Shown piece by piece: positions 851-54,600 of a stretch of 64,000 bases of DNA. The translations under genes and the position numbers were made by a program. The first letter of the stretch is position 1. Each line of letters opens with the position of its first letter. The notes beneath the pieces were generated by a model. It was not told the origin of the DNA, did not search any database, and saw only the letters and a program-made list of their open reading frames with translations. Source of the DNA: Octopus vulgaris (Eukaryota); the NCBI GenBank assembly GCA_951406725.2, contig OX597823.1, positions 37,200,001 to 37,264,000 on the forward strand. Reading direction: 5' to 3'.

Positions 851-1580
851 ATTTATTGTTTCTTGTCCACATATTCTGAAGAAATATAACAAGTAACTGC
901 AGAATATGTGGAGATGGACAAGAAACAATAAATCATATTATCTCTGGCTGCCCAGTCCTGGCTAAGAAGGAATATATTCACAGACATGACAGAGTTGGAA
1001 CCTACATACACTGGAAGCTATGGCAACATTATGGAATAACAACAGAAAAAAGATGGTATAGGCACACACCAGAAAAGGTCACAGAAAATGAGAAAGCAAC
1101 CATACTCTGGGATATGCCGATACACACAACCATACTCTGGGATATGCCGATACACACAGATAGAGAAATTAAGGCCAACAGACCAGATATAGTTGTCAGA
1201 GATAATGAAGAAAAAAAATGCTTTCTAATTGATGTATCAATACCGGCAGATGACAACGTGTCTCTAAAAGAAATGGAGAAACTTTCAAAATACAAAGACC
1301 TGAAAATAGAGGTAACTAGAATGTGGAATCTAAAAACAGGAACAATTTCTATCATAGTAGGTGCATTATGCATGATAAAAAAATATTCAGACAAATGCAT
1401 AACAAAAACACCAGGACTTACAAACACATATAACATACAGAAAATTGCACTACTAGGCACTACACACATCCTACGCAGAACACTTTCAATACAGTAACCA
1501 TCAGAGCATCACAACAAATCACAGCACATACCCAAGGCACACAGAGCTGCGCTCGGTAGTGTAGTGAAAGCACGTTATAA
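851..1580 (+). mobile_element. 5'-truncated R4/Dong-like LINE (CCHC knuckle + PD-(D/E)xK endonuclease)
   Basis: CRICGDGQETINHIISGC knuckle, RHD, ILWD, NRPDIVV...LIDVSIP, EKLSKYKDL, IIVGAL, QKIALLGTTHILRRTL (ORF 1114-1497 is part of it); 30-bp internal tandem duplication at ~1099-1158. Confidence 0.9.
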
Positions 1581-2551: not shown

Positions 2552-2850
2552 AATGAGATGTGGGAAGAGCCGTAAAATGCGACAACCGATGCAGATTTTG
2601 TGGAGTTAACGCTGAAAATGCCACCCATATCATAAGCACTGGTCCGAAAATGTCATCACGGTATAATCTACCGATGAGACGTGACGTTGTAGCTAGGACA
2701 TTCTCTAATGAGATCCATCGGAAGGATAATCCCGAGTACAAAGTGTTATATCGCACTTTCGGATGGCGTGCCTTCGCCAATAACGTACCTCTACTCAACT
2801 ACCGACTATTCGACTCAACAGAACGCGACGTCTAGTCTACCGACGGCTCC

Positions 2851-4550
2851 TGTTTCTTTATTATAACCACAAGTGCTCAAAATACAGGGGGACAAAGAAG
2901 GACAGACAGGACACCACAGAGGGGACAATACATAGAACGAATATGAGTGAAATGGTTATATAATAAGGAAATTATGAACGGCTGCTTGCGCCCCTCATCA
3001 CATGCGGTACCATTAATGTTGTTTACAGTCAATTATTACCGGATATTTAAATAACAATTAACTATCATGTAACATACCATTGCAAGTCACCAATCCGTGT
3101 ATTATCCGGCGTCCACATCGGATTCTTGACGTATTGTCTTTCCAATAAAACAATCTTATGACTCGCTATCCATTGACAGAGGTCTATCTGAAGGATAGTC
3201 CTTTATTAGCGGTATCACGTCATCCCAGTCGATTACTGGTTCCACCTTTTCAAACTCGACTTCAAACTGTACCATTTCCATATCGCACCTTTATTCCAAC
3301 TCCTCATAGCAGTTCGGTTCTATTATTATTGCTTTAGTCCCATCCTTGTCGTAATCCTTTTGGTACTCCACATAATACCATCTCTTCTTCGTCTAGTTTT
3401 CACTCCCTCCTTCATTCCTTTTTTTTTTCACCTCTCATCAACCTCACCTCCGGAGGAAAAACTTTCAAACTTTCCTCTTCTGTTTTTCTTGTCACCATTT
3501 TGTCTCGGTTACTTCCCACTGCCTCTTTTTTTCTTTTTCAACTTCTCCGGTGGAGAACCCCTTCTACCTTTTATTTTTCGCGGTTTCACCTCCACGAATT
3601 CCTCTTCTGTATCCACTGTTTCACTTCCTTCTCCACATCCCACCACGTTTGCCTCTCTATGCGTCGAACTCTCCTTCCTGTTTTTCCTTGCTTTGAGGAC
3701 AGTCCGCTTTTTTGTGTCCTCTTTTGCTACACAAAAAACATTTCAAAGGCCTGCCCTCTACCACCACATTCAGCTTGTATCCTTCGGGCAGTACTATTTC
3801 CTCAATTATGGAATTCAGATCTTCCAGGGTGGCTTGAATTTACATTTCCAGCCCGTATCACCCAGAAGTCTAACTTTTGAGTTCTTGTTGCCATTAATAT
3901 TGTCGGACTCTGTTTCATGTGGAACAAGACTGCCGCCATAATCCACGTCTCGTCGTATTCGGGTGGGATTTTACCCACCCTTACTCTGTCCATTCTTTTC
4001 CCGCAGTAACTCGGTAGGAAAGCCCACTCGTCATTCCTAATCGCGTTTACTGCATGCTCTGCTGCTACTTCTTCGGGTGCGAACCTGACTTCTACCATTT
4101 CGAACTTCTGACTTCTTGTTACAAAAGTCGTCAGGTGTTTAATATTTTTGAGTGTTTTTTCTATACTCGCAGTCGTTGAGGTTTCGATTTTTCCTGTGGA
4201 CAATCTTAAAGTCTTATACAGGACCGTTCTTTTTTGTAAACTTTCCAAAAATTTTTTTGGCGGTGCTGTTCCTTGATTCATTAACAATTTTCCACATTCT
4301 TCAATTCTGCCTGTTTCTACCTTTACTTTCTTCACTGTTAACGAGGCAGTATTGTTACTACCTGTTGCCGTCGCTGCATAGCTCTGGCTCGAGGTATTCA
4401 AATTCTCTATTATACAATTGAATAAAAAAAAACAGAAATATACAGGCACACCCGCTCAGGGAAAGCCTTCAATAATCAATCAGTAATAATTAATTCACAA
4501 TTAATTAACTTGTAACTCACAAAAATTAACTCGAACACTCTCTGACGGCT
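2851..4550 (-). mobile_element. ORF1-only (HAL1-like) Tx1/L1-derived retroelement, copy 1 (1700 bp, frameshifted)
   Basis: 15-bp TSD tctaccgacggctcc (2836-2850, 4551-4565); ORF1-like protein with SYAA, EVRF, LPSYCGKR..RVRVGKIPPE and knuckle CFLCSKRGHKKADC; AATAAA at the 3' end; no endonuclease or RT motifs seen. Confidence 0.8.
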
Positions 4551-4580
4551 TCTACCGACGGCTCCGACTCGCTCTACGCT

Positions 4581-6276
4581 TTCTCTTTATTATAGGCATA
4601 TAGCCTTCTTTATAGAATGGATATTACAAAGACAAACGTGGGGTATATAAAATGTTTAACGAATGAATTATAAAATGTGAAATTATGATAATGAAATGGC
4701 TTTCTACCCCCAAAGTAGAAAGCACCATTTTACTGTTTTTATACTTAATGCTTTTGTTCAGTATGTATTATATTTATATTGGATAAGGTATTAAGTCTGT
4801 ATACATTACCACTGGTGGCAATTCATCATATTGAAACCGCTTTCTTGTAATTTCCGCTCTGCTTCCAAATGTCACTTTTAGTCTTGCTGCTCTTTCGTTC
4901 TCAAGTAGCACTGCTTTCACAATACGGTTCTCTTCATTATCTACTAATTTCACTCTTATTACACCTTTCATTTTTGCTATACGCTTTTCCATTTCCACAC
5001 TTTTCTCGTACACCACAAACATTCGTTCATGTTTTCCTTTGCGTGGCTTTCTCGGCTGTATTTCTTCACTCTCTACTGGTGCTTCCATTTCTATTTGCTG
5101 TTCGTTTTCTTGTCTTTTCTGTCCTTCCTCCTCCTTACTCGTTGAAGGTTCCGGCTCTTGAGTTCGATTCTCCGTTGCTTCCTCATTTCTTCTTTTCTCT
5201 TTTTTCTTTTCCTCCGCCTTACTTTTTTTTTCGGGGGCGATTCGCTATTTCCTTTCTTCTCCACCAATGTGAACTCTATTTCCTTCTCCGATACTATATT
5301 CACTTCTATCTGATGCCCCTCCTCTACCACCTCTTGTTCGTGTTTCTGAGGACACTTTGCCTTCATGTGCCATCCCTACTCCCTATTGGAAGCATTATTG
5401 GTGGTCTACCCTCCACCATGACTCTCAGTCTGGTCTCATCGGGCAGGACTATCTCTTCTATCATTTTGTGGAGGTCAGGCAGCTGATAAGTACCATCACT
5501 TCTAGGCCATACCCCCACCAGTTCCTCCTCCTCCTCACTTCTAGGCCACACCCCCACCAGTTGACCTCCGCTGTCTTTGACATCTTTAACATCTCCGCCT
5601 TCTCCTCTGTATTGTAGAGGATGGCCGCCACAAGCCAGTCTTCGTCAATTTCGGGTGGCATTCTCCCTACCCTCACTCTGGCTGCGCCTCCGCCACAGCA
5701 AGTGGGCAAGAGTACCCACTGTGCCGGCCTCAAGGCTACGGTGGAGCACCTCCCCACTTCGTTCTCATTAACGAAGCGCACCTCCATCGCGCCAAACCCT
5801 CGTCCCCTGCTATAGAAAGTCGTCACTTCCGCAACTTCTCTCAAACACCCCTCCGCCTCCTCAATGCCTGCCACCTCAACCTTTCCCGTGTCTATGTTCA
5901 GCGCTCGGCAAGTGATCACTTTCCTTTCCGACCTCTCTGCTATTTCTTTGGGTGGTGCTAAACTCAAACACCCTCCTTCCCTCCTCAACAGGTCATCAAA
6001 ACTTTCTGCAATCAACATCCCTCACTTCCAGCTCCTGCACTCGCAGTAGCTCCGCTGTCAGGCCCCTGCCCGTCACCGCAGTACAACTGCCCGTCTGGGT
6101 CGCGCGTTCACAATTCTGCCATTCACAGCTTCACCCATAAATGAGGAAGCCAAACAAGACTTTCAATGAATTCAAAAAATTACAAATTCAACAATCACAA
6201 TTTCCACAATTCAGCAGTTCAGTTACACAAAGCAACAACTCACATGTGAGTGAGATCAAGACACAAAAAATCGGCC
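4581..6276 (-). mobile_element. ORF1-only (HAL1-like) Tx1/L1-derived retroelement, copy 2 (1696 bp, frameshifted)
   Basis: 9-bp TSD ctctacgct (4572-4580, 6277-6285); paralogous to copy 1 (EVRF, RVRVGRMPPE, IEEIVLP..VEGRP, ..GHMKAKC); AATAAA at the 3' end; 39-bp internal tandem duplication at ~5497-5562. Confidence 0.8.
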
Positions 6277-7045
6277 CTCTACGCTATGCTTCCCGTCTAG
6301 CTATCACGTCCACTGTTTATACGTATTAGATTAGTCTACTTATCGTCTGGGAGCGTCCATACAACACAAAGAAATAAGAATCCACAATATGGTAGAAGCC
6401 ATAGCCACTCATAATAAAAAAAGGAGCACTGGTGAAATGTACCAGTGAAGACCTCAATAAAATGTAAGCACAACAGGCCTGATATAATGATTTGGGACAG
6501 AGAAGAGAAACTGTGCACAGTTGTGGAAATTAGCTGCCCAGCAGATGTTAATGCAAAGCTGAAGATCAGTGAAAATGAGAATACCTACATTGAACTATTG
6601 AGAAATCCGCAGTCACTCTATCCAGATTACAAGTTCAGTTTTATAGCTGTAATTATTGGGGGCCTGGGATATGTAGAACACACTGCCTAAATACTAATCT
6701 TGAGAAATTAGGCTTCTCAAAACCAGAAAGATGAAAACTAATTCAAAGACTACAGATCCAATCCATTACTGGAACTGTAAAAATCAGTAAAATTTTCCAG
6801 GAGTTTACCATTTAAATATGTATGAGCATGTCTAGATATGCAACTATATGCATGAGAATACATACATAACATAAAACATACAAATCAGCACATACATACA
6901 TTCATACATACATACATACATACATACATACATACATACATACATACATACATACATACACAAACACACATACATACATACATACATACATACATACATA
7001 CATACATACATACATACATACATACATACATACATTAAAAAAAAA

Positions 7046-7362
7046 GGAGCACTCCGTCGGTTACGACGACGAGGGTCCCAGCTGATACGATCAACGGAAC
7101 AGCTTGCTCGTGGAATTAACATGCAAGTGACTGAGCAATCCACAGACACGTGTACCCCTAACGTAGTTCTCAGGGAGATTCATCGTGACACAGAGTGTGA
7201 CAAGGCCGGCCCTTTGAAATACAGGTACAACTCATTTTTGCCAGCTGAGTGGATTGGAGCAACGTGAAATAAAGTGTCTTGCTCAACACAACGCATCGCC
7301 GGGAATCGAACTTACGACCTTACAATCGTCGGTCGAATGCCCTAACCACTAAGCCACGCACC
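7046..7362 (-). mobile_element. tRNA-derived SINE, family A
   Basis: A box TGGCTTAGTGG, B box GTTCGATTC, body ttgagcaagacacttt..; homologous to 18248-18577 and 41452-41712; inserted in (ATAC)n. Confidence 0.9.
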
Positions 7363-7821
7363 ATCACATACATACATACATACATACAAAAATACCCTGT
7401 TGTTGATGTTGAAATTCCAATGAAGGAGCCTTGGATCTAGGTTTGAAACCGGTTCTTTCTCTATTGACAAGAAATCTTGAAATAAACTGAATAATGATAT
7501 GCATACATACATACATACATACATGCATACATACATACATACATACATACATACATACATACATACATACATACATACATACATACATACATACATACAT
7601 ACATACATACATTCTGAAGCACCTTATCCAAGGAGAGATTTGTCTTAATCTCGTTGTGCTATGAAACTAGATTTAAGCACCACCTATCCTTACGGTGCAG
7701 GAAATGTATATTTAAACGTATGTGTGCGTGTGTATTCAGCAGCTTCCGTGCTTGCTCCTTACAAATAAAATACAATATTACGAAAAAACTCTAACAATAA
7801 TCTATACCCTAAACCGCGTAG

Positions 7822-17960: not shown

Positions 17961-18853
17961 TTAAAATTTAATAAGGGTATAAATTGATATTAATCAATTA
18001 AAACCAGTGGCCCAGCATATTAAAAAAATCCGAAGATTAAAATATTTTTACATACAAAATTTAAAGGACTGAACACTAAAAGTGGACGGTCAACATGCTA
18101 GATATAGACGTCAAATCGCTATTTTCCACAAAGAATATGTTCTCAAATAAAAACTCAGCACAAACCAAAGCATTAAAAATAAGCAAGACAAATGAAAATA
18201 TACGAAATAAAAAATGATTACCCATGTACCGATTAGTTTCGATTGTTGTGAGGGCGCGTGGCTTAGTGGTTAGGGCATTCGGCTCATGATCGTAAGGTTG
18301 TGAGTTCGATTCCCGGCGACGCGTTGTGTCCTTGAGCAAGACACTTTATTTCACGTTGCTCCAGTCCACTCAGCTGGCAAAAATGAGTTGTACTTGTATT
18401 TCAAAGGGTCAGCCTTGTCACTCTCTGTGTCACGCTGATTATCCCCGAGAACTACGTTAAGGGTACACGTGTCTATGGAATGCTCAGCCATTTGCACGTT
18501 AATTTCACGAGCAAGCTGTTCCGTTGATCGTATCAGCTGGGACCCTCGTCGTCGTAACCGGCGGAGTCTTTAAAATAAGTTTCGATTGTTAATATCCGCA
18601 AGGATAAACTGCAATCTCGTCAGCATGGTCTGTCATATAGAAATACAATTTGCAGGACTAGATGCAAAAACGTTTGACCGGAGTCTCGCATGCATGGAGT
18701 CCAACCGATTATATTTTTGTGTATCTTTCAAATGCCTTCACTTCGGCGCGCTGAGATCGGAAAAACTACCCTGCAGCTAATAAGTAGCAGCAGTCAATTT
18801 ACCGGTTAGAGAACATATTTATTTAATTTAAAATTTAATAAGGGTATAAATTG

Positions 18854-19766: not shown

Positions 19767-22700
19767 GAGGTCGCTCTTGAGCGCTACTGGTAACATGTAA
19801 CTGAATACAACCTGTGGCATGGGCGGGTCGTCGGCGACTAAAGTGACAACATCCAAGTTTGCTGAGGAGGGTGATTGTTGGACAGCCTGCAGGACGAAAA
19901 ATAAGACCTCACAAAGCAAAAACCCAATAGACATTCCCCTTCCCAATCCAAACCGCTCAGACCTTTCGAGTGCTGAGGTCGAGAAGTGATGGCGCACAGT
20001 CGCCACAAAAAAAAAAGATGAAGAAAAACTGCAGAACCATCAAAAGTGGGGAGGCGCAAGCAGGTCGAGCCACCCAACAGCAGTAATACTCACACACACA
20101 CAACAACCAACAACAGCACCAACACCAGCACCACTTTCACCAGCACTACCACCTCAAACACTGACAACAGTATAAACACCAACATACTCCACAAGCACTA
20201 CCAACCTCATAGCCATAGACACTAATAATGCAGAACTAATCACGCGCCTTAAAAATCACACAGACACTACCATGGAAAACTTTGTTTTCTCTATACACAA
20301 CGTACCATCACCATACATATAAATACTAAAAATAAGCGAAAACGTCTACAACACATTAAAAACACAATTCCTAGACGCTGTTATGTCGTTTCAAAAAGTT
20401 TTTTGCAAAAAGCTGTACAAAAGTCTACTCGTAGGAACACCTGCATCAAAGAATGTGGAGGCCATCCCACTACAAAACAGCGGTAAGTAACTCTTTCCTT
20501 AATTGTAATTTTTTTCTCAACATGGTCTTGCTCAAGATTGGTTGTTTAAATGCTCGGGGCCTCGAGTCACCTTGGAAACAAGGTCACCGACCTGAGGTCC
20601 CTTAGTGTAAACGTAGTAGCTATTAGTGAAACCAGACTTTCCGAACCGCAGGCCTTCATGACCCTCTTCGCTGGATACAAAATCTACCTATCTCTGTGTC
20701 TTCCGGGAGGGGGCGGTGATGGTACTGTAGTGCTTTTCCGGAAAGGTCTGGATTTGAAAATAAAAGCAATCTTACTGTATCCAGAAGGTAAGTTGGTGGT
20801 CCTGGATGTGAACAGCTGTGACTGCGCGCCTTCAGACTAGTGGCTGTCTATGGTCCGACTGAGGCAGGACGGCCGGATAACTTCAAGTGTCTGGAGGTTT
20901 TCCTGGGAATATCTCGAATTTTAGTGTTAGTAAGGGATTGGAACACTTAGATGGACGTTTCGATTGCGTGGGACTATCTGATAGGAGAGGGAGTGCAAAA
21001 GCCTCACAAACCTGCTCAGACATTTCCAACTGTCTGACAGGTAAAGACTAGAATACTTGAATGTGCCAATGTGTACTTGCACAAATCGCATCGGGTCATC
21101 TTGTTCGTATTTAGATAGAGTTTTTCCTGTAGGTTAGCGGATAAGGATAGCATAGGTTGTTCACATTTTCACATGGTCGGCAACACAGACCACAAATTCA
21201 TGATCTGTACGGTCAACCTAGATATGCTTCGTAGACAGGGCCCCGGTTACTGGAAGCTCAACATGTCGTTACCGGCGTGCCAAGCTTACAGTAACTGGAT
21301 TAGCGTATTAGTTAAGAGGACGTTGACGGGGGAAATCGGCAACAACAACTGGTGGTTTGTTCTTAAAAGGGCAATTAGAGTAGAATCCATTAGGTTTAGT
21401 AAGGCTTTAGCGGTAGAAAGAAATAGAATAGAGTGAGATTTAGTTAGAAAGTTAGATGAGGCACTTAGGAAAGGCATCGCAACTGACGTATTGGTGGCAA
21501 GGTTGGTCCTCGAACAATTTTTCGGCGCCATACACGAAGGCTCTGTTGTTAGAGCTAAGGCACGTTCACTAAGCGGAAAGGGAACGAAAGCTGCTCGATG
21601 GAACTTAGTGGTGGATGCAAAATGTGGCAACACTGCTACCATTCGGCCTTTGGTAGACAAGAACGGACGCGATATGTTTGAACCGAAGCAGATGTGTGCG
21701 GCTTTTCAACAGCACTTTGCTCGACTGTTCGGGACGAGTGGTAGAACAGGTAAGAGGGCAGATTTCGGTGTCTACCTGGACGGCCTACCGTTACTCTCAG
21801 CGAGCGAGTTGAAGCGCTGCGAAAGGCCGATAACAGCCGCGGAAATATAGGAAGCGATGAAGTGCTGCACGAGAGGCAGATCGTCGGGATTGGATGGTCT
21901 GCGCTACGAACTTTATATTTCGATGCCAGACTTGTTTGGAGGCATCTTAGCAAATATCTACAGAAACTAGCAGCAGAATGGGAGAATTCCCAGTTTTGTC
22001 TATCGAGGGATGGCGGCACTGCTAAGAAAGGACCAAAACAAGGGAGACATTATACAAAATTTCAGGTCCATCACTCTGCTCAATGCAGAGTTGAAGATTT
22101 TGGCCAAGGTGTTAGCCAAGAGGTTGGCGCTTGTTGTGGACAAGCTGATTGACGAGGCGCAACCATGCGCCATCCCGACCAGACTATTCGCGACAACCTC
22201 CACCTCATGCGCTGCATCATAGAGAAGATGGGTAACGAAGCTGGCATGGGTGGGGATCTGATCAATTTAGATCAATCTAAAGCCTTCGATAGGGTCGACC
22301 ACCAATATTTGGCGGCTGTTCTCGCGGCAGCCGGTTCAGTTTTCCGCGTTGGATCACTGTCGAAACAGCGTCGTTGGGCGCTGGACAGACGGTCTAGTTA
22401 AATTACTCGGGGTCTGGTTCGGTCCAGATTTCCAGGTAGAGAAAGACAAAGAGAAGGTGACGAACAGGATAGCCAATCTCACCTAGAAATGGGCCGAGAG
22501 GAAGCTGTCCCTGAAAGGTCGAGCCGAGGTGGCGAATGCGTACGTCACATCCATCTTCTATTACTGCTTGACCGTCGTCTCTAGCTCTTTATTTTAACTG
22601 AATAAGCTAGTCCGCATTATCTTCGGCTTTTTGTGGAGGAGTCATGTTCTGCTGGTAAGGCGCTCCATCTGCTGTCAACAGCCGCTGAATGGGGTCCTAA

Positions 22701-23450
22701 ACATGCTGTGATTGCTGATACGCAGAGATGCGCTCAGGCTACATCTCCAGCGTTTCCTTGACGGTGAGTAGGTGTGGTCACCGTTTGTTAGACTCGCTCT
22801 CCCACAACTCGTCTCTTTGACTGAGCTTCAATCCTGGATTAGGCACAAACCTATGAGGGGCGCTTGTCACCTCGAGTGCCATCAAGCGCTCACAATCCTC
22901 CGCCAGGCGAGCAATGCGGTCGGTGGTAGTTCTACTCTAGCGTTCTATAGAGGGTTAAAGGAGAAAAAGTAAGACGACGTTCTCGGGGAAACTCTGGGTG
23001 TCGATGAAGATGAACTCACCAGCCTGCTCCGGAGGACTTTCGGGACGGAGCCTATGGATAACTTCCAGAAATTCCTCGCCTGGTCGTTCTACCGAGGGGT
23101 GCTGCCCGTTCGGGATAAATTTTACAGGCACGGAAGTGCCGTCAGCCGGAACTACTCGAGATGTACGCAGACGGACGAAACCGTTCTACACGCACTCGTC
23201 CTGTGCCCGAGGATTGCTGACCTGCGGGTTTATGTCGAACACCTGCTGTCGCCTGTGGGGCGTATCCGGCTATCAGCTGAATCCATAGTGAAGGTTTCCC
23301 CGCCATCTTCCTTTGGTCGGGAGGGGCAGGCAAATTTTATTTGTCTAGCGGCTGTAGCAAATGAGGGAGTATGGTGGACATGTTTGAAGGGGCTAAAGAC
23401 AGACACTTTCCTCTTTGGCCAAGGCCTCATAAACGCGGCCATTCTTTTTT
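19767..23450 (+). mobile_element. Decayed Tx1/L1-clade LINE (ORF1 remnant, APE endonuclease, partial RT, C-terminal Cys/His domain)
   Basis: ORF2 starts MVLLKIGCLNARGL at 20522; AISETRL, SYLDRV, TDHK, GPGYWKLN; NFRSITLLNAELKILAKVLAKRL; DQSKAFDRVDH; RCTQTDETVLHALVLCP; many stops and frameshifts; YADD region deleted near 22360. Confidence 0.92.
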
Positions 23451-23689
23451 CTTAAGCAGGATGGGAACGGTTTCGCAATAGCGTGTCGGAAAATAGGAAA
23501 ATTCGAGTTGAATGACGCTAAGGTGCATTTAACAAAGACTGGTAGAACAGCTTTCATTAACACACCGGAAGAAGTGCAAGAAGACACTAAGAAGAAAATC
23601 ATTATATATAAATGTATATAATTAAAGACGAGGAGCATGCACAGGTAACACACCCGAGAAAAAGTAAAACACCTACACCACCGTAATCT

Positions 23690-51603: not shown

Positions 51604-54600
51604 TCTTGCTTTAACTGGCCACAAGGGCCGAACACAAAAACATATAGGGACGATATAAAACAAGGGACAAGCGAGGTGTAAAACAGAAATCGTGTAGACA
51701 ATAAAAAGCAAAAATAGTTAACAAAAAATCTAACACCAAAATTCCTCAATCGGGGAGGGGTTCCACCCAGGACCAACCAGGGCATCCCACACATCCTGGT
51801 CACCCCGACTGCCAATGGCACGCCAAGTAGGCACTCCTCTTCCCTTCAACTGCCCCGGGTTACAGGCGAACATTCAGAATAACCCCTTTCAGACGAGCCA
51901 TTTTCGCAACATTCACCCACTTTTCAACAAAATTACTGGAGGAGCAGTACTTCTCTCTCTACTCTCACTTTCCTTTTCAAGTTCCACTTAAAAAAGCCGA
52001 TGAGGACTCGACCGAATATGAAAGTGTCTGTCTTCAGTTCTTTCAGCCACACTACCTCTTTCGCTATAGCCACCAGACAGAGAAAAACTGCCTTTCCCTC
52101 CCGGCTAAAAGAAAGCGGCGGGGCAATCCTCCAGATGGACTCAATTAAGAACCGGATCCGTTCTACACGAGACATCAGGTGTTAGACAAAGCTCCACAAG
52201 TCAGTAATGGACGAGTGCACGCAGAACAGTTTTATCACCCTGCGCACACCTCGGACAGGTCTGTCTAACAGCACTTCTGTGTCTGTACAGCTTTCTCGAA
52301 ACCGACAGAGCTCCCCAGAGATTTCTGGAAATTGTCCAAAGCCCGAGATTTCTGGAAATTGTCCAAAGCCCGAGCCCGAAAGTCCTCCCGAAAAGAGCAA
52401 TTAACTGATCCCTCCCGACGCCCAGACTTTCCCTGAAAATGTCGTCGTTCTTGTCTGCCACTAATCCCTAATAGAACTCTATAGCGGAACATCTACCGAC
52501 CGCGTTGCCCGACTGGTAGAAAGCTATGAGCGCTTGCCTATACTCCAGGTACCAAGTGCCCTTTCTTTGTCTACGTTTGACCCAGGTCTGTAGCTCCATC
52601 AATGAGACGAGCTGTGGAAAATCCCGTTTGATGAACGGTGACCACACCTGCCCACCGCTAAGAAAAAAGCTAGAGATGTCGCAGCCTCAACATAAGTCTG
52701 TGCATCGTTTGCCACGACATGCCCAGTCCTCCACTTAGCAAATGGACCGTCTGACGAAGAGAATACACCCGTTCCACAGAAATTGAACGAGTAAGCACAC
52801 CAGCTTGATCAGCCACAAAGTGGAGCAAAGGACGACAGCCAGGTGGTAGTAGATGACAGAAGCGATGTACGCACTTGCCACCTCTGCCCGACCCTTCAAG
52901 GACAGCTTCTTCTCTGCCCATTTCTGGATGAGATTGGTTACCCTGCTCGTCACCTACTCTCAGTACTTGTCCACCTGGGGGCCGGGGCCAAACCGGACCT
53001 CGAGCAATTTAACCGGTCCTTCTGTCCGACGCCCGACAACGTTGTTGGTTGGCATGGACTTGCCTCTCCAGGTGCCAAGCTGCAGGCCTAGCGACTTCTG
53101 GTTAATCTTTGCTCCTGTCACTGCTTCGTACTCCCTTAGGGCAGTACCGACCACCTCGATTTCCGAGATGTCTAACACTATTACAGTAACCTCGTCCGCA
53201 TAAGCCGACACGAACTGTCCTAGATGCCCCTCGAAACATCCAGCTTCCGCAGCAATGGCTCTAGAGCCAGTGCGTACAGAAGAGGTGAGAGTGGACATCT
53301 TTCTCAACAGCACCACCTCTCCAAGACTCACAGCACTGGGAATTCCCCCGTTCTGCTGCCAGTTTTGGTAGAGATCTGTCAAGAGATCACCGAACAAGCC
53401 TAGCATATGAAGATAAAGCTCGAAGGGCTGACCATCCCGACCCAGAGACTTCTCTCTTGCGCAGCTCGTCATCGCGTCCCGTATATCTTCGGCTGTTATT
53501 GACATTTCGCAGAACTCTGTATCCCTGGCTGAGAGGTTCGGCGTGCCACGGAGATAAAATCCATCTCCATCCCAGGACCACCGCACGCCCCATACAGTTC
53601 GGTGAAGTGTCGCTGAAATTCCGCACACATGTCGGAATAACTCGGTTATCATGCACTTCTCACAGCTTTTCAGGTGTTGGTGTAGGTTCATTTGTTTACT
53701 TTTTCTTTTGTTACGTTTTTGTTTTTGCTTTGTAAGGTTCGTCCTCATCTTCACTACAAGTTGAGGAGGGACTAGTGTCTGTAAGATCTGTCTTGGGGAG
53801 TGTGAGTGTGTTTGTGATAGTGTAAGAGTGTTTGTGTGAGTGTATGCTTGAGAGGAGGTGAGGGAGCTGGTTTGAGAGACACCCTGGGTGGTTTGTTCCA
53901 TTGTATGGGGCTCACGTGCCTCTGTCGTTGTTAGAGATGAGGCTACAGTTTTGTTAAAAATCTCTGTTGTTGCTGTTGTTGGGGATGTAATGTAGGCTGC
54001 ACGTGCAGCCATGCACCTCCCAACTTTTGTGGAGCAGAGGGCTCTCAAGTGACTTGTGGCCCTACAGATATCGCATCTGGGCTTCCAGCCGTTCACAACG
54101 AACTGCAGTTCCACCTCTTTGGAGCAGCTGGATCAGGTCCGGGGTGTTCTTGATATTTTCTGGTCTTACATGGATTAATATTTCCATATTTATCCCAAAC
54201 GCGTCTCCCTGCTGCTCCTTTTTACCTCCAAGAATTACTCTGGATCTTGCACACAAGCTACAATCCACCAGACGTTATCCTAACCTTAATCGTTCTCTTT
54301 GAGAGGTAGGTGGGATACAGGACCCACTCTTCAGTCCACCGGGGTGACATTGCGTGTCTTCGCGTGAGGTCCTTACTTTTAACGAGGACCTTGATGCTGG
54401 CGAACTGCGTCCCTCTCTGTATATGGGACCACATCTATTAAAATTACTTTTAGGGCTTTCTCAACGTGACTGATGGAGGTGATTTCTGCTTGATAGGCAT
54501 CTAAAAATAGACGGTCTTTTTTTCTGTTGTCGCTATTATTTCGGGAGGTATGAGCACTGCTGCTGTCACTGCTACTACTGCTGTCACTGCTACTACTGCT

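Follow-up and report, generated by a model that had tools for sequence, protein, structure and literature searches.

Strand-specific A-to-G tracts in ORF1-only retroposons of Octopus vulgaris, a probable inherited record of ADAR hyperediting

The window, by which we mean the whole 64-kb stretch of DNA analysed here (C10:37200001-37264000 of the 2.8-Gb Octopus vulgaris genome), contains two short retroposons, nested head to tail in one solo LTR directly after its TATA box, all on the minus strand. The first, unit A (4581..6276), is a copy of an ORF1-only non-LTR retroposon ~1.7 kb in length. It begins with a U-rich 5' leader, followed by an ATG at 6138, a frameshifted ORF1 that runs to about 4774, and a 3' UTR with the signal AATAAA (4591-4586); this is its one ORF, and there is no ORF2. 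Nine exact bases are duplicated at its two ends (5' copy, 6277..6285; 3' copy, 4572..4580, the same 9-mer read as 4580-4572). Unit B (2851..4550) is an ORF1-only copy of another subfamily that is not hypermutated (28 A>G changes vs 29 G>A), and is flanked by a 15-bp target-site duplication in direct repeat (4565-4551 and 2850-2836). The host LTR is represented by a 5' part (6286..6366), which starts with TGT, has a TATA-like box at about 6321-6314 and matches uninterrupted LTRs of ~205 bp elsewhere in the genome, and by a 3' part (2744..2835), which ends with ACA. Because a 5-bp duplication (6371-6367 and 2743-2739) flanks it, this is a solo LTR. The uninterrupted ~205-bp LTR elsewhere in the genome has a primer-binding site and a polypurine tract, and these, with TG..CA ends, a target duplication in the 4-6 bp range and an integrase upstream, are the hallmarks of Ty3/Gypsy elements, all of which the host element displays. 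The host integrase fragment matches rve/rve_3 below the curated cut-off, and from the resemblance of its gag/pol we take the host element to be Gypsy. Elsewhere in the window, 880-1497 (+) holds a C-terminal piece of another LINE ORF with a weak zf-RVT match, and 7051-7368 and 18247-18567 form an inverted pair of short repeats, 91% alike and 11 kb apart, presumably SINE-like.

Over 143 aa, the ORF of the unit A family shares 38% identity (E 1.6e-33) with ORF1 of a LINE found in this genome, and the ORF2 of that LINE contains Exo_endo_phos, RVT_1 and zf-RVT domains (endonuclease and reverse transcriptase, RT). The poly(A) tails of young relatives of the units differ in length, the tails of old copies are short and A-rich, and the direct repeats on either side of the units also vary in length. 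Such tails and target-site duplications identify non-LTR insertions and, together with the ORF1 homology, indicate that the element works like a HAL1-like ORF1-only retroposon; we assume that it is Tx1/L1-like. No relatives of the unit ORF turned up in protein searches, which is weak evidence of anything. Like HAL1 (half-L1), the units are non-autonomous, ORF1-only LINE derivatives (PMC5753468), but HAL1 is described from mammalian L1, whereas the octopus units encode a zinc-knuckle ORF1, lie just behind an LTR TATA box and often form head-to-tail arrays. An 11-pair hairpin occurs in the 3' UTR of unit A (4699-4723, minus strand), and could be a recognition signal for the partner RT. ORF1-only units are found ~30-50 bases behind the TATA box of several LTR families, and are then stacked head to tail (2744-6366 (-) in the window; L043, L045, L046, L049, L050, L235, L237 and L239 elsewhere). 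This placement suggests that the units prefer LTR transcription starts as targets and borrow the promoter of the LTR. Entry into LTRs by strong-stop jumps can be discarded, since the start of the duplications varies, their sequence agrees with that of each host LTR, and young copies carry poly(A) tails. In the mostly non-subscription literature searched, we found no report of ORF1-only elements that target LTRs.

What sets unit A apart is the composition of its sense (minus) strand. Per 100 bases, positions 5501-6100 contain 34-45 G and 18-30 A, and positions 4801-5400, downstream, 26-33 G and 36-50 A, in agreement with the initial annotation, which had drawn attention to a G-rich, A-poor stretch with an A-rich one beyond it and had proposed hyperediting of the RNA by ADAR. 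Compared in the sense direction with its nearest paralogue, L002, the copy differs in 5480-6110 by 73 A>G (of 216 A), 8 G>A (of 157 G), 15 T>C and 4 C>T changes; in 4700-5479, downstream, the two purine transitions are level, at 20 A>G and 20 G>A. Measured in 5560-6200 against the majority base in each column of 22 copies that show no visible tract, the changes are A>G at 60/198 sites, G>A at 14/149, T>C at 9/129 and C>T at 4/96. The A>G excess in this interval, which was picked after the data had been seen, has a Fisher p of 1.6e-7 against T>C and 1.5e-6 against G>A. The best-fit core of the tract is 5584..6120 (-), with A>G at 59/172 sites inside and 13/357 outside, and it may extend to 5549. 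Within it, A>G changes are spread evenly over the three codon positions (18/63, 17/55 and 20/54), and so were not filtered by selection. Clusters of sense G>A changes, the APOBEC-type pattern, are absent from this copy and from the young copy on C4 described below.

Most of the residue changes that had been singled out as reachable by A>G hold up in the alignment (TAT to TGT; TAC to TGC and ACG to GCG; AAA to GGG; TAC to TGC and AGA to GGA). The exception is VGKIP to VGRMP, an error that stemmed from comparison with a distant paralogue: the unit's own family already has R, and the M results from G>A. A GGC codon opposite R, noted from the start as a misfit, is indeed one, the change being C>G. 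Two outcomes that would have spoken against editing, a family consensus with the same G or Cys residues and a balance among substitutions, do not occur; the family carries A at these sites, and the changes are skewed towards A>G. At the 3' edge of the tract lies what had been described as a 39-bp internal duplication. It is, rather, a 28-bp direct repeat with a 39-base period (5496..5562 (-); copies 5562-5535 and 5523-5496, with 11 bases of filler between), which does contain both codon states as claimed: TGT in the upstream copy (G at 5549) and TAT, the family state, in the downstream copy. Among four alignment rows compared, the repeat is present only in the window copy. A template switch from unedited to edited RNA would explain both the TGT/TAT difference, which comes down to one base, and the location of the repeat at the tract edge.

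Runs of a single mismatch type can be sequencing errors (PMC2873906), and an artefact of sequencing or assembly must be considered here too. Contigs of four runs from four studies (organisms A, B, C and D) match the tract, however, with differences at 0/637 bases (X2), 7/659 (X3, organism B), 8/304 (X6, organism C) and 8/268 (X7, organism D). Among the differences listed, one puts A back at an edited site, 5806 (organism C). The TGT and TAT states of the repeat are spanned, unchanged at both sites, by contigs of runs X1 and X5. Presence of the tract in contigs of other samples, and under three other organism labels, means that it is inherited and not an assembly error; for the window copy the artefact is refuted, and its overall probability is negligible.

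The window copy is not alone in bearing such a tract. With 5400-6200 as the query, a DNA search yielded 58 matches among the best 40 of 147 candidates, and from these 30 loci were taken. Sense A>G tracts occur in 7 of these 30 unit-A copies, a frequency biased upward because the query was itself an edited copy, in 2 of 19 copies of the unit-B subfamily, and in 2 of 44 units of a young subfamily, one of them found with an edited query. Further A>G-clustered retrocopies, the existence of which had been put forward as a check, are thus present in the genome, and no comparable T>C tract was seen in any copy examined. An automatic scan also flagged 7 of the 30 unit-A copies, but with L015 swapped for L027, and flagged two G>A windows in addition; it caught one of the two edited unit-B copies, and thresholds matter in old copies. 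The host Gypsy integrase and LTR have tracts in 0/30 copies. A related autonomous LINE has none in 33 non-self alignments to a full-length unit; the scan flagged five of 30 copies, of which two owed this to a microsatellite tail, two more lacked a body tract when itemised and one (L162) was not itemised, and none were counted. These results suggest that hyperedited tracts are specific to the ORF1-only family, although the controls are top-scoring matches of unedited queries and so biased against edited copies. Young autonomous endonuclease-RT LINEs, homologous to 21437-23455 and 52000-54132 of the window, occur as 5.87-kb head-to-tail arrays, 99% alike, with (ATT)n-type tails (L188-L191, L196-L197, L200 and L204).

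The bases that neighbour the changed adenines are far from random. By 5' neighbour, A>G in the window copy affects T 14/25, A 29/65, C 8/30 and G 4/55, and in seven old edited copies pooled T 104/162, A 195/444, C 59/213 and G 46/413, so that the depletion of 5' G predicted at the outset is found; in the 22 control copies the 5' context is flat, at 0.04-0.07. Metazoan ADAR prefers U or A on the 5' side of its target and mostly G on the 3' side, with 5' G disfavoured (PMC9989829); the 5' order in edited copies, U>A>C>>G, is that of ADAR. The 3' neighbours of the old edited copies (T.41, 81/196; G.38, 145/382; C.30; A.25) depart from the usual motif, in that T is as common as G, and this counts against ADAR.

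Two young copies are better preserved, and the figures given for each against a near relative come from the assembly alone. The cleanest is on C4 (L239:6994-8865 (-), C4:~97907994-97909865), which differs from its tandem neighbour by 178 A>G (of 667 A), 0 G>A, 4 T>C and 1 C>T. The second, of another sub-lineage, is on C7 (L315:2065-3944 (-), C7:~29256064-29257943), and differs from its sibling L323 by 169 A>G and 1 G>A. The C4 changes follow T at.36 (45/126), A at.38 (102/267), C at.22 and G at.07 (13/189), and precede G at.41 (74/179), C at.29, A at.20 and T at.20; in the C7 copy 3' G is 73/182. Both have a 5' G rate of 0.05-0.07, and both have the 3' G preference of ADAR, at ~0.40. L235 and its relatives (C4:70.043-70.051 Mb and others) have open frames of up to 457 codons and occur as near-identical copies in 1.8-kb tandem arrays; this young subfamily was probably mobile recently, and its protein had no match in protein searches. 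The 3' UTR of edited copies is spared. Among the three with a 3' UTR and a tract that reaches there, changes affect 5/133 sites in the 3' UTR vs 165/517 in the ORF of the first, and 0/40 vs 71/220 in the second; the third has 2 changes in its last five 100-base bins.

Could the RT itself have misincorporated dCMP opposite A, owing to an unbalanced nucleotide pool or to slippage, a mechanism by which RTs are known to err? Strand-specific bursts of A>G, copy by copy, are what such errors predict, and the 3' G enrichment of the C4 copy could fit slippage. Neither the five- to sixfold depletion of 5' G in that copy nor the sparing of an A-rich 3' UTR is predicted by RT error, which the neighbour context already disfavours and to which we allow a very small chance of being correct. 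Deamination of DNA is a different matter, as it too would give one-off, copy-specific tracts: another adenine deaminase, or ADAR acting on the DNA of an RNA:DNA hybrid, as ADARs can in vitro (PMC12925331), might have changed the sense DNA during or after integration. The DNA of the hybrid is the antisense strand, however, and its editing predicts T>C in the sense direction, of which the young copies have 1-4 vs 169-178 A>G; with A>G confined to the sense strand, the first cDNA strand cannot have been the one edited. Tracts, moreover, end within the unit and spare the tandem neighbours. We therefore judge DNA deamination to be very improbable.

There is also the question of whether the G-rich copies simply form a subfamily that diverged, or result from GC-biased conversion, or whether it is the other copies that have lost G. 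Old edited copies, taken in pairs, have more G sites in common than simple independence predicts, and two of them, L005 and L017, belong to one clade, which speaks for this explanation. Yet a purine-recoded tree (30 rows, 1572 columns) places edited copies beside unedited sisters in distinct supported clades, which points to independent origins. The T>C counterpart is missing, there is no codon-position bias, and searches with two edited copies as queries yielded no close descendants, the best other matches being 78% and 87%. The young copies largely refute this explanation, since their siblings are otherwise >99% alike, and overall we find it extremely unlikely. That the C4 and C7 copies belong to different sub-lineages is shown by their non-A/G differences from a common reference (9/1673 vs 91/1583). 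They share 79 edits, vs 58 expected from trinucleotide context, with 72 and 67 private; we assume that site preference accounts for this excess and for that among the old pairs.

ADAR hyperediting of the element's RNA before retrotransposition is the account we favour, with a probability of about 0.88, the one-stranded A>G tract being its record in DNA. The initial proposal of RNA editing ahead of integration is supported to that extent, with the mutational signature pointing to ADAR as the probable enzyme and to editing as the probable first step. Element RNA would enter a long duplex, presumably with antisense RNA, and its adenosines would be hyperedited by ADAR. The RT of the partner LINE would read inosine as G, and the edited copy would be inserted into the germline genome in trans, probably by target-primed reverse transcription. 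Octopus is an animal with very high ADAR activity, and ADAR deaminase domains occur at four loci in this genome, one deaminase exon being 100% identical over 160 aa to an Octopus ADAR2, which bears out the coleoid origin assumed at the outset. Editing is confined to single units in arrays: unit B, beside the edited window copy, is unedited, and only one unit of the three-unit array that holds the C4 copy is edited. The substrate was thus most likely the unit's own RNA, and not an LTR or array transcript. There is no inverted copy near the window copy or the C4 copy, and the predicted folds of an unedited sibling are short helices only, which makes a duplex between separate sense and antisense RNAs the likely substrate; such pairing is a documented substrate of ADAR in other animals (PMC9989829, section 11). 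An inverted, 95%-identical fragment at the 3' end of L005 (L052:6936-7229) was rejected as a source of duplex, as it does not overlap the L005 tract. Sparing of the 3' UTR fits an antisense partner that ends there, a protein that shields it, or an RT that can be primed only from an intact 3' end. Against ADAR hyperediting count the missing inverted partner, the surplus of shared edits and the finding that ADAR1 did not edit ectopic human L1 RNA (PMC5224506).

Several known systems resemble this one in part. Proviruses hypermutated from A to G have been described for Rous-associated virus, avian leukosis virus, HTLV-2/STLV-3 and BLV (PMC12925331, PMC8025556), three BLV proviruses having at least 7 A>G changes in a ~70-bp LTR window (PMC8025556). 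As proposed for the octopus copies, reverse transcription of edited RNA has left clusters of A>G in their DNA, but these are exogenous retroviruses in somatic or cultured cells, and their tracts are short; the octopus copies, in contrast, are non-LTR and germline-inherited, with tracts of 0.4-1.5 kb and up to 178 changes, and make up several percent of the copies sampled. Endogenous LTR retrotransposons edited by APOBEC (Knisbacher and Levanon, PMC4866542; see also PMC2873906) likewise bear strand-specific deaminase scars found by comparison of paralogues. Those fossils are G>A, from cytidine deamination of cDNA in vertebrate LTR elements, whereas ours are A>G, probably made at the RNA level, in an invertebrate non-LTR element; the main text of PMC4866542 describes a screen filtered for G>A over A>G, with invertebrates as negative controls. 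Dense A>G clusters, 5' G depletion and 3' G preference also characterize ADAR hyperediting of repeat dsRNA in transcriptomes (PMC9989829), but that is normally transient in RNA, and the octopus tracts are written into the genome. The available portion of PMC5974252 contains no case of an inherited ADAR-type A>G tract, and we found no report of such tracts in non-LTR copies in a literature that was mostly non-subscription and without supplements (those of PMC4866542 may tabulate A>G clusters).

A broader proposal, which we offer tentatively and at somewhat less than even odds, is that antisense RNA in the octopus germline forms duplexes with the leader and ORF of promoter-borrowing units, and that ADAR ruins several percent of new insertions. 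This would be an APOBEC-like, editing-dependent defence, older than the split of several octopus lineages and active until the recent past, and its scars would reveal past ADAR specificity from DNA alone. Restriction of human L1 by ADAR reportedly needs no editing, and ADAR editing is in general regarded as transient. If the ADAR reading is true, the tract in the window is an inherited record of RNA editing. The copies point to an appreciable rate at which hyperedited retroposon RNA is reverse-transcribed and passed on, which would allow the action of ADAR on transposons in the germline to be assayed from DNA alone. One such event adds about 10% divergence and so mimics an old copy or a new subfamily, a warning for the annotation and dating of repeats. 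For the octopus, it would amount to a route from RNA editing to heritable mutation.
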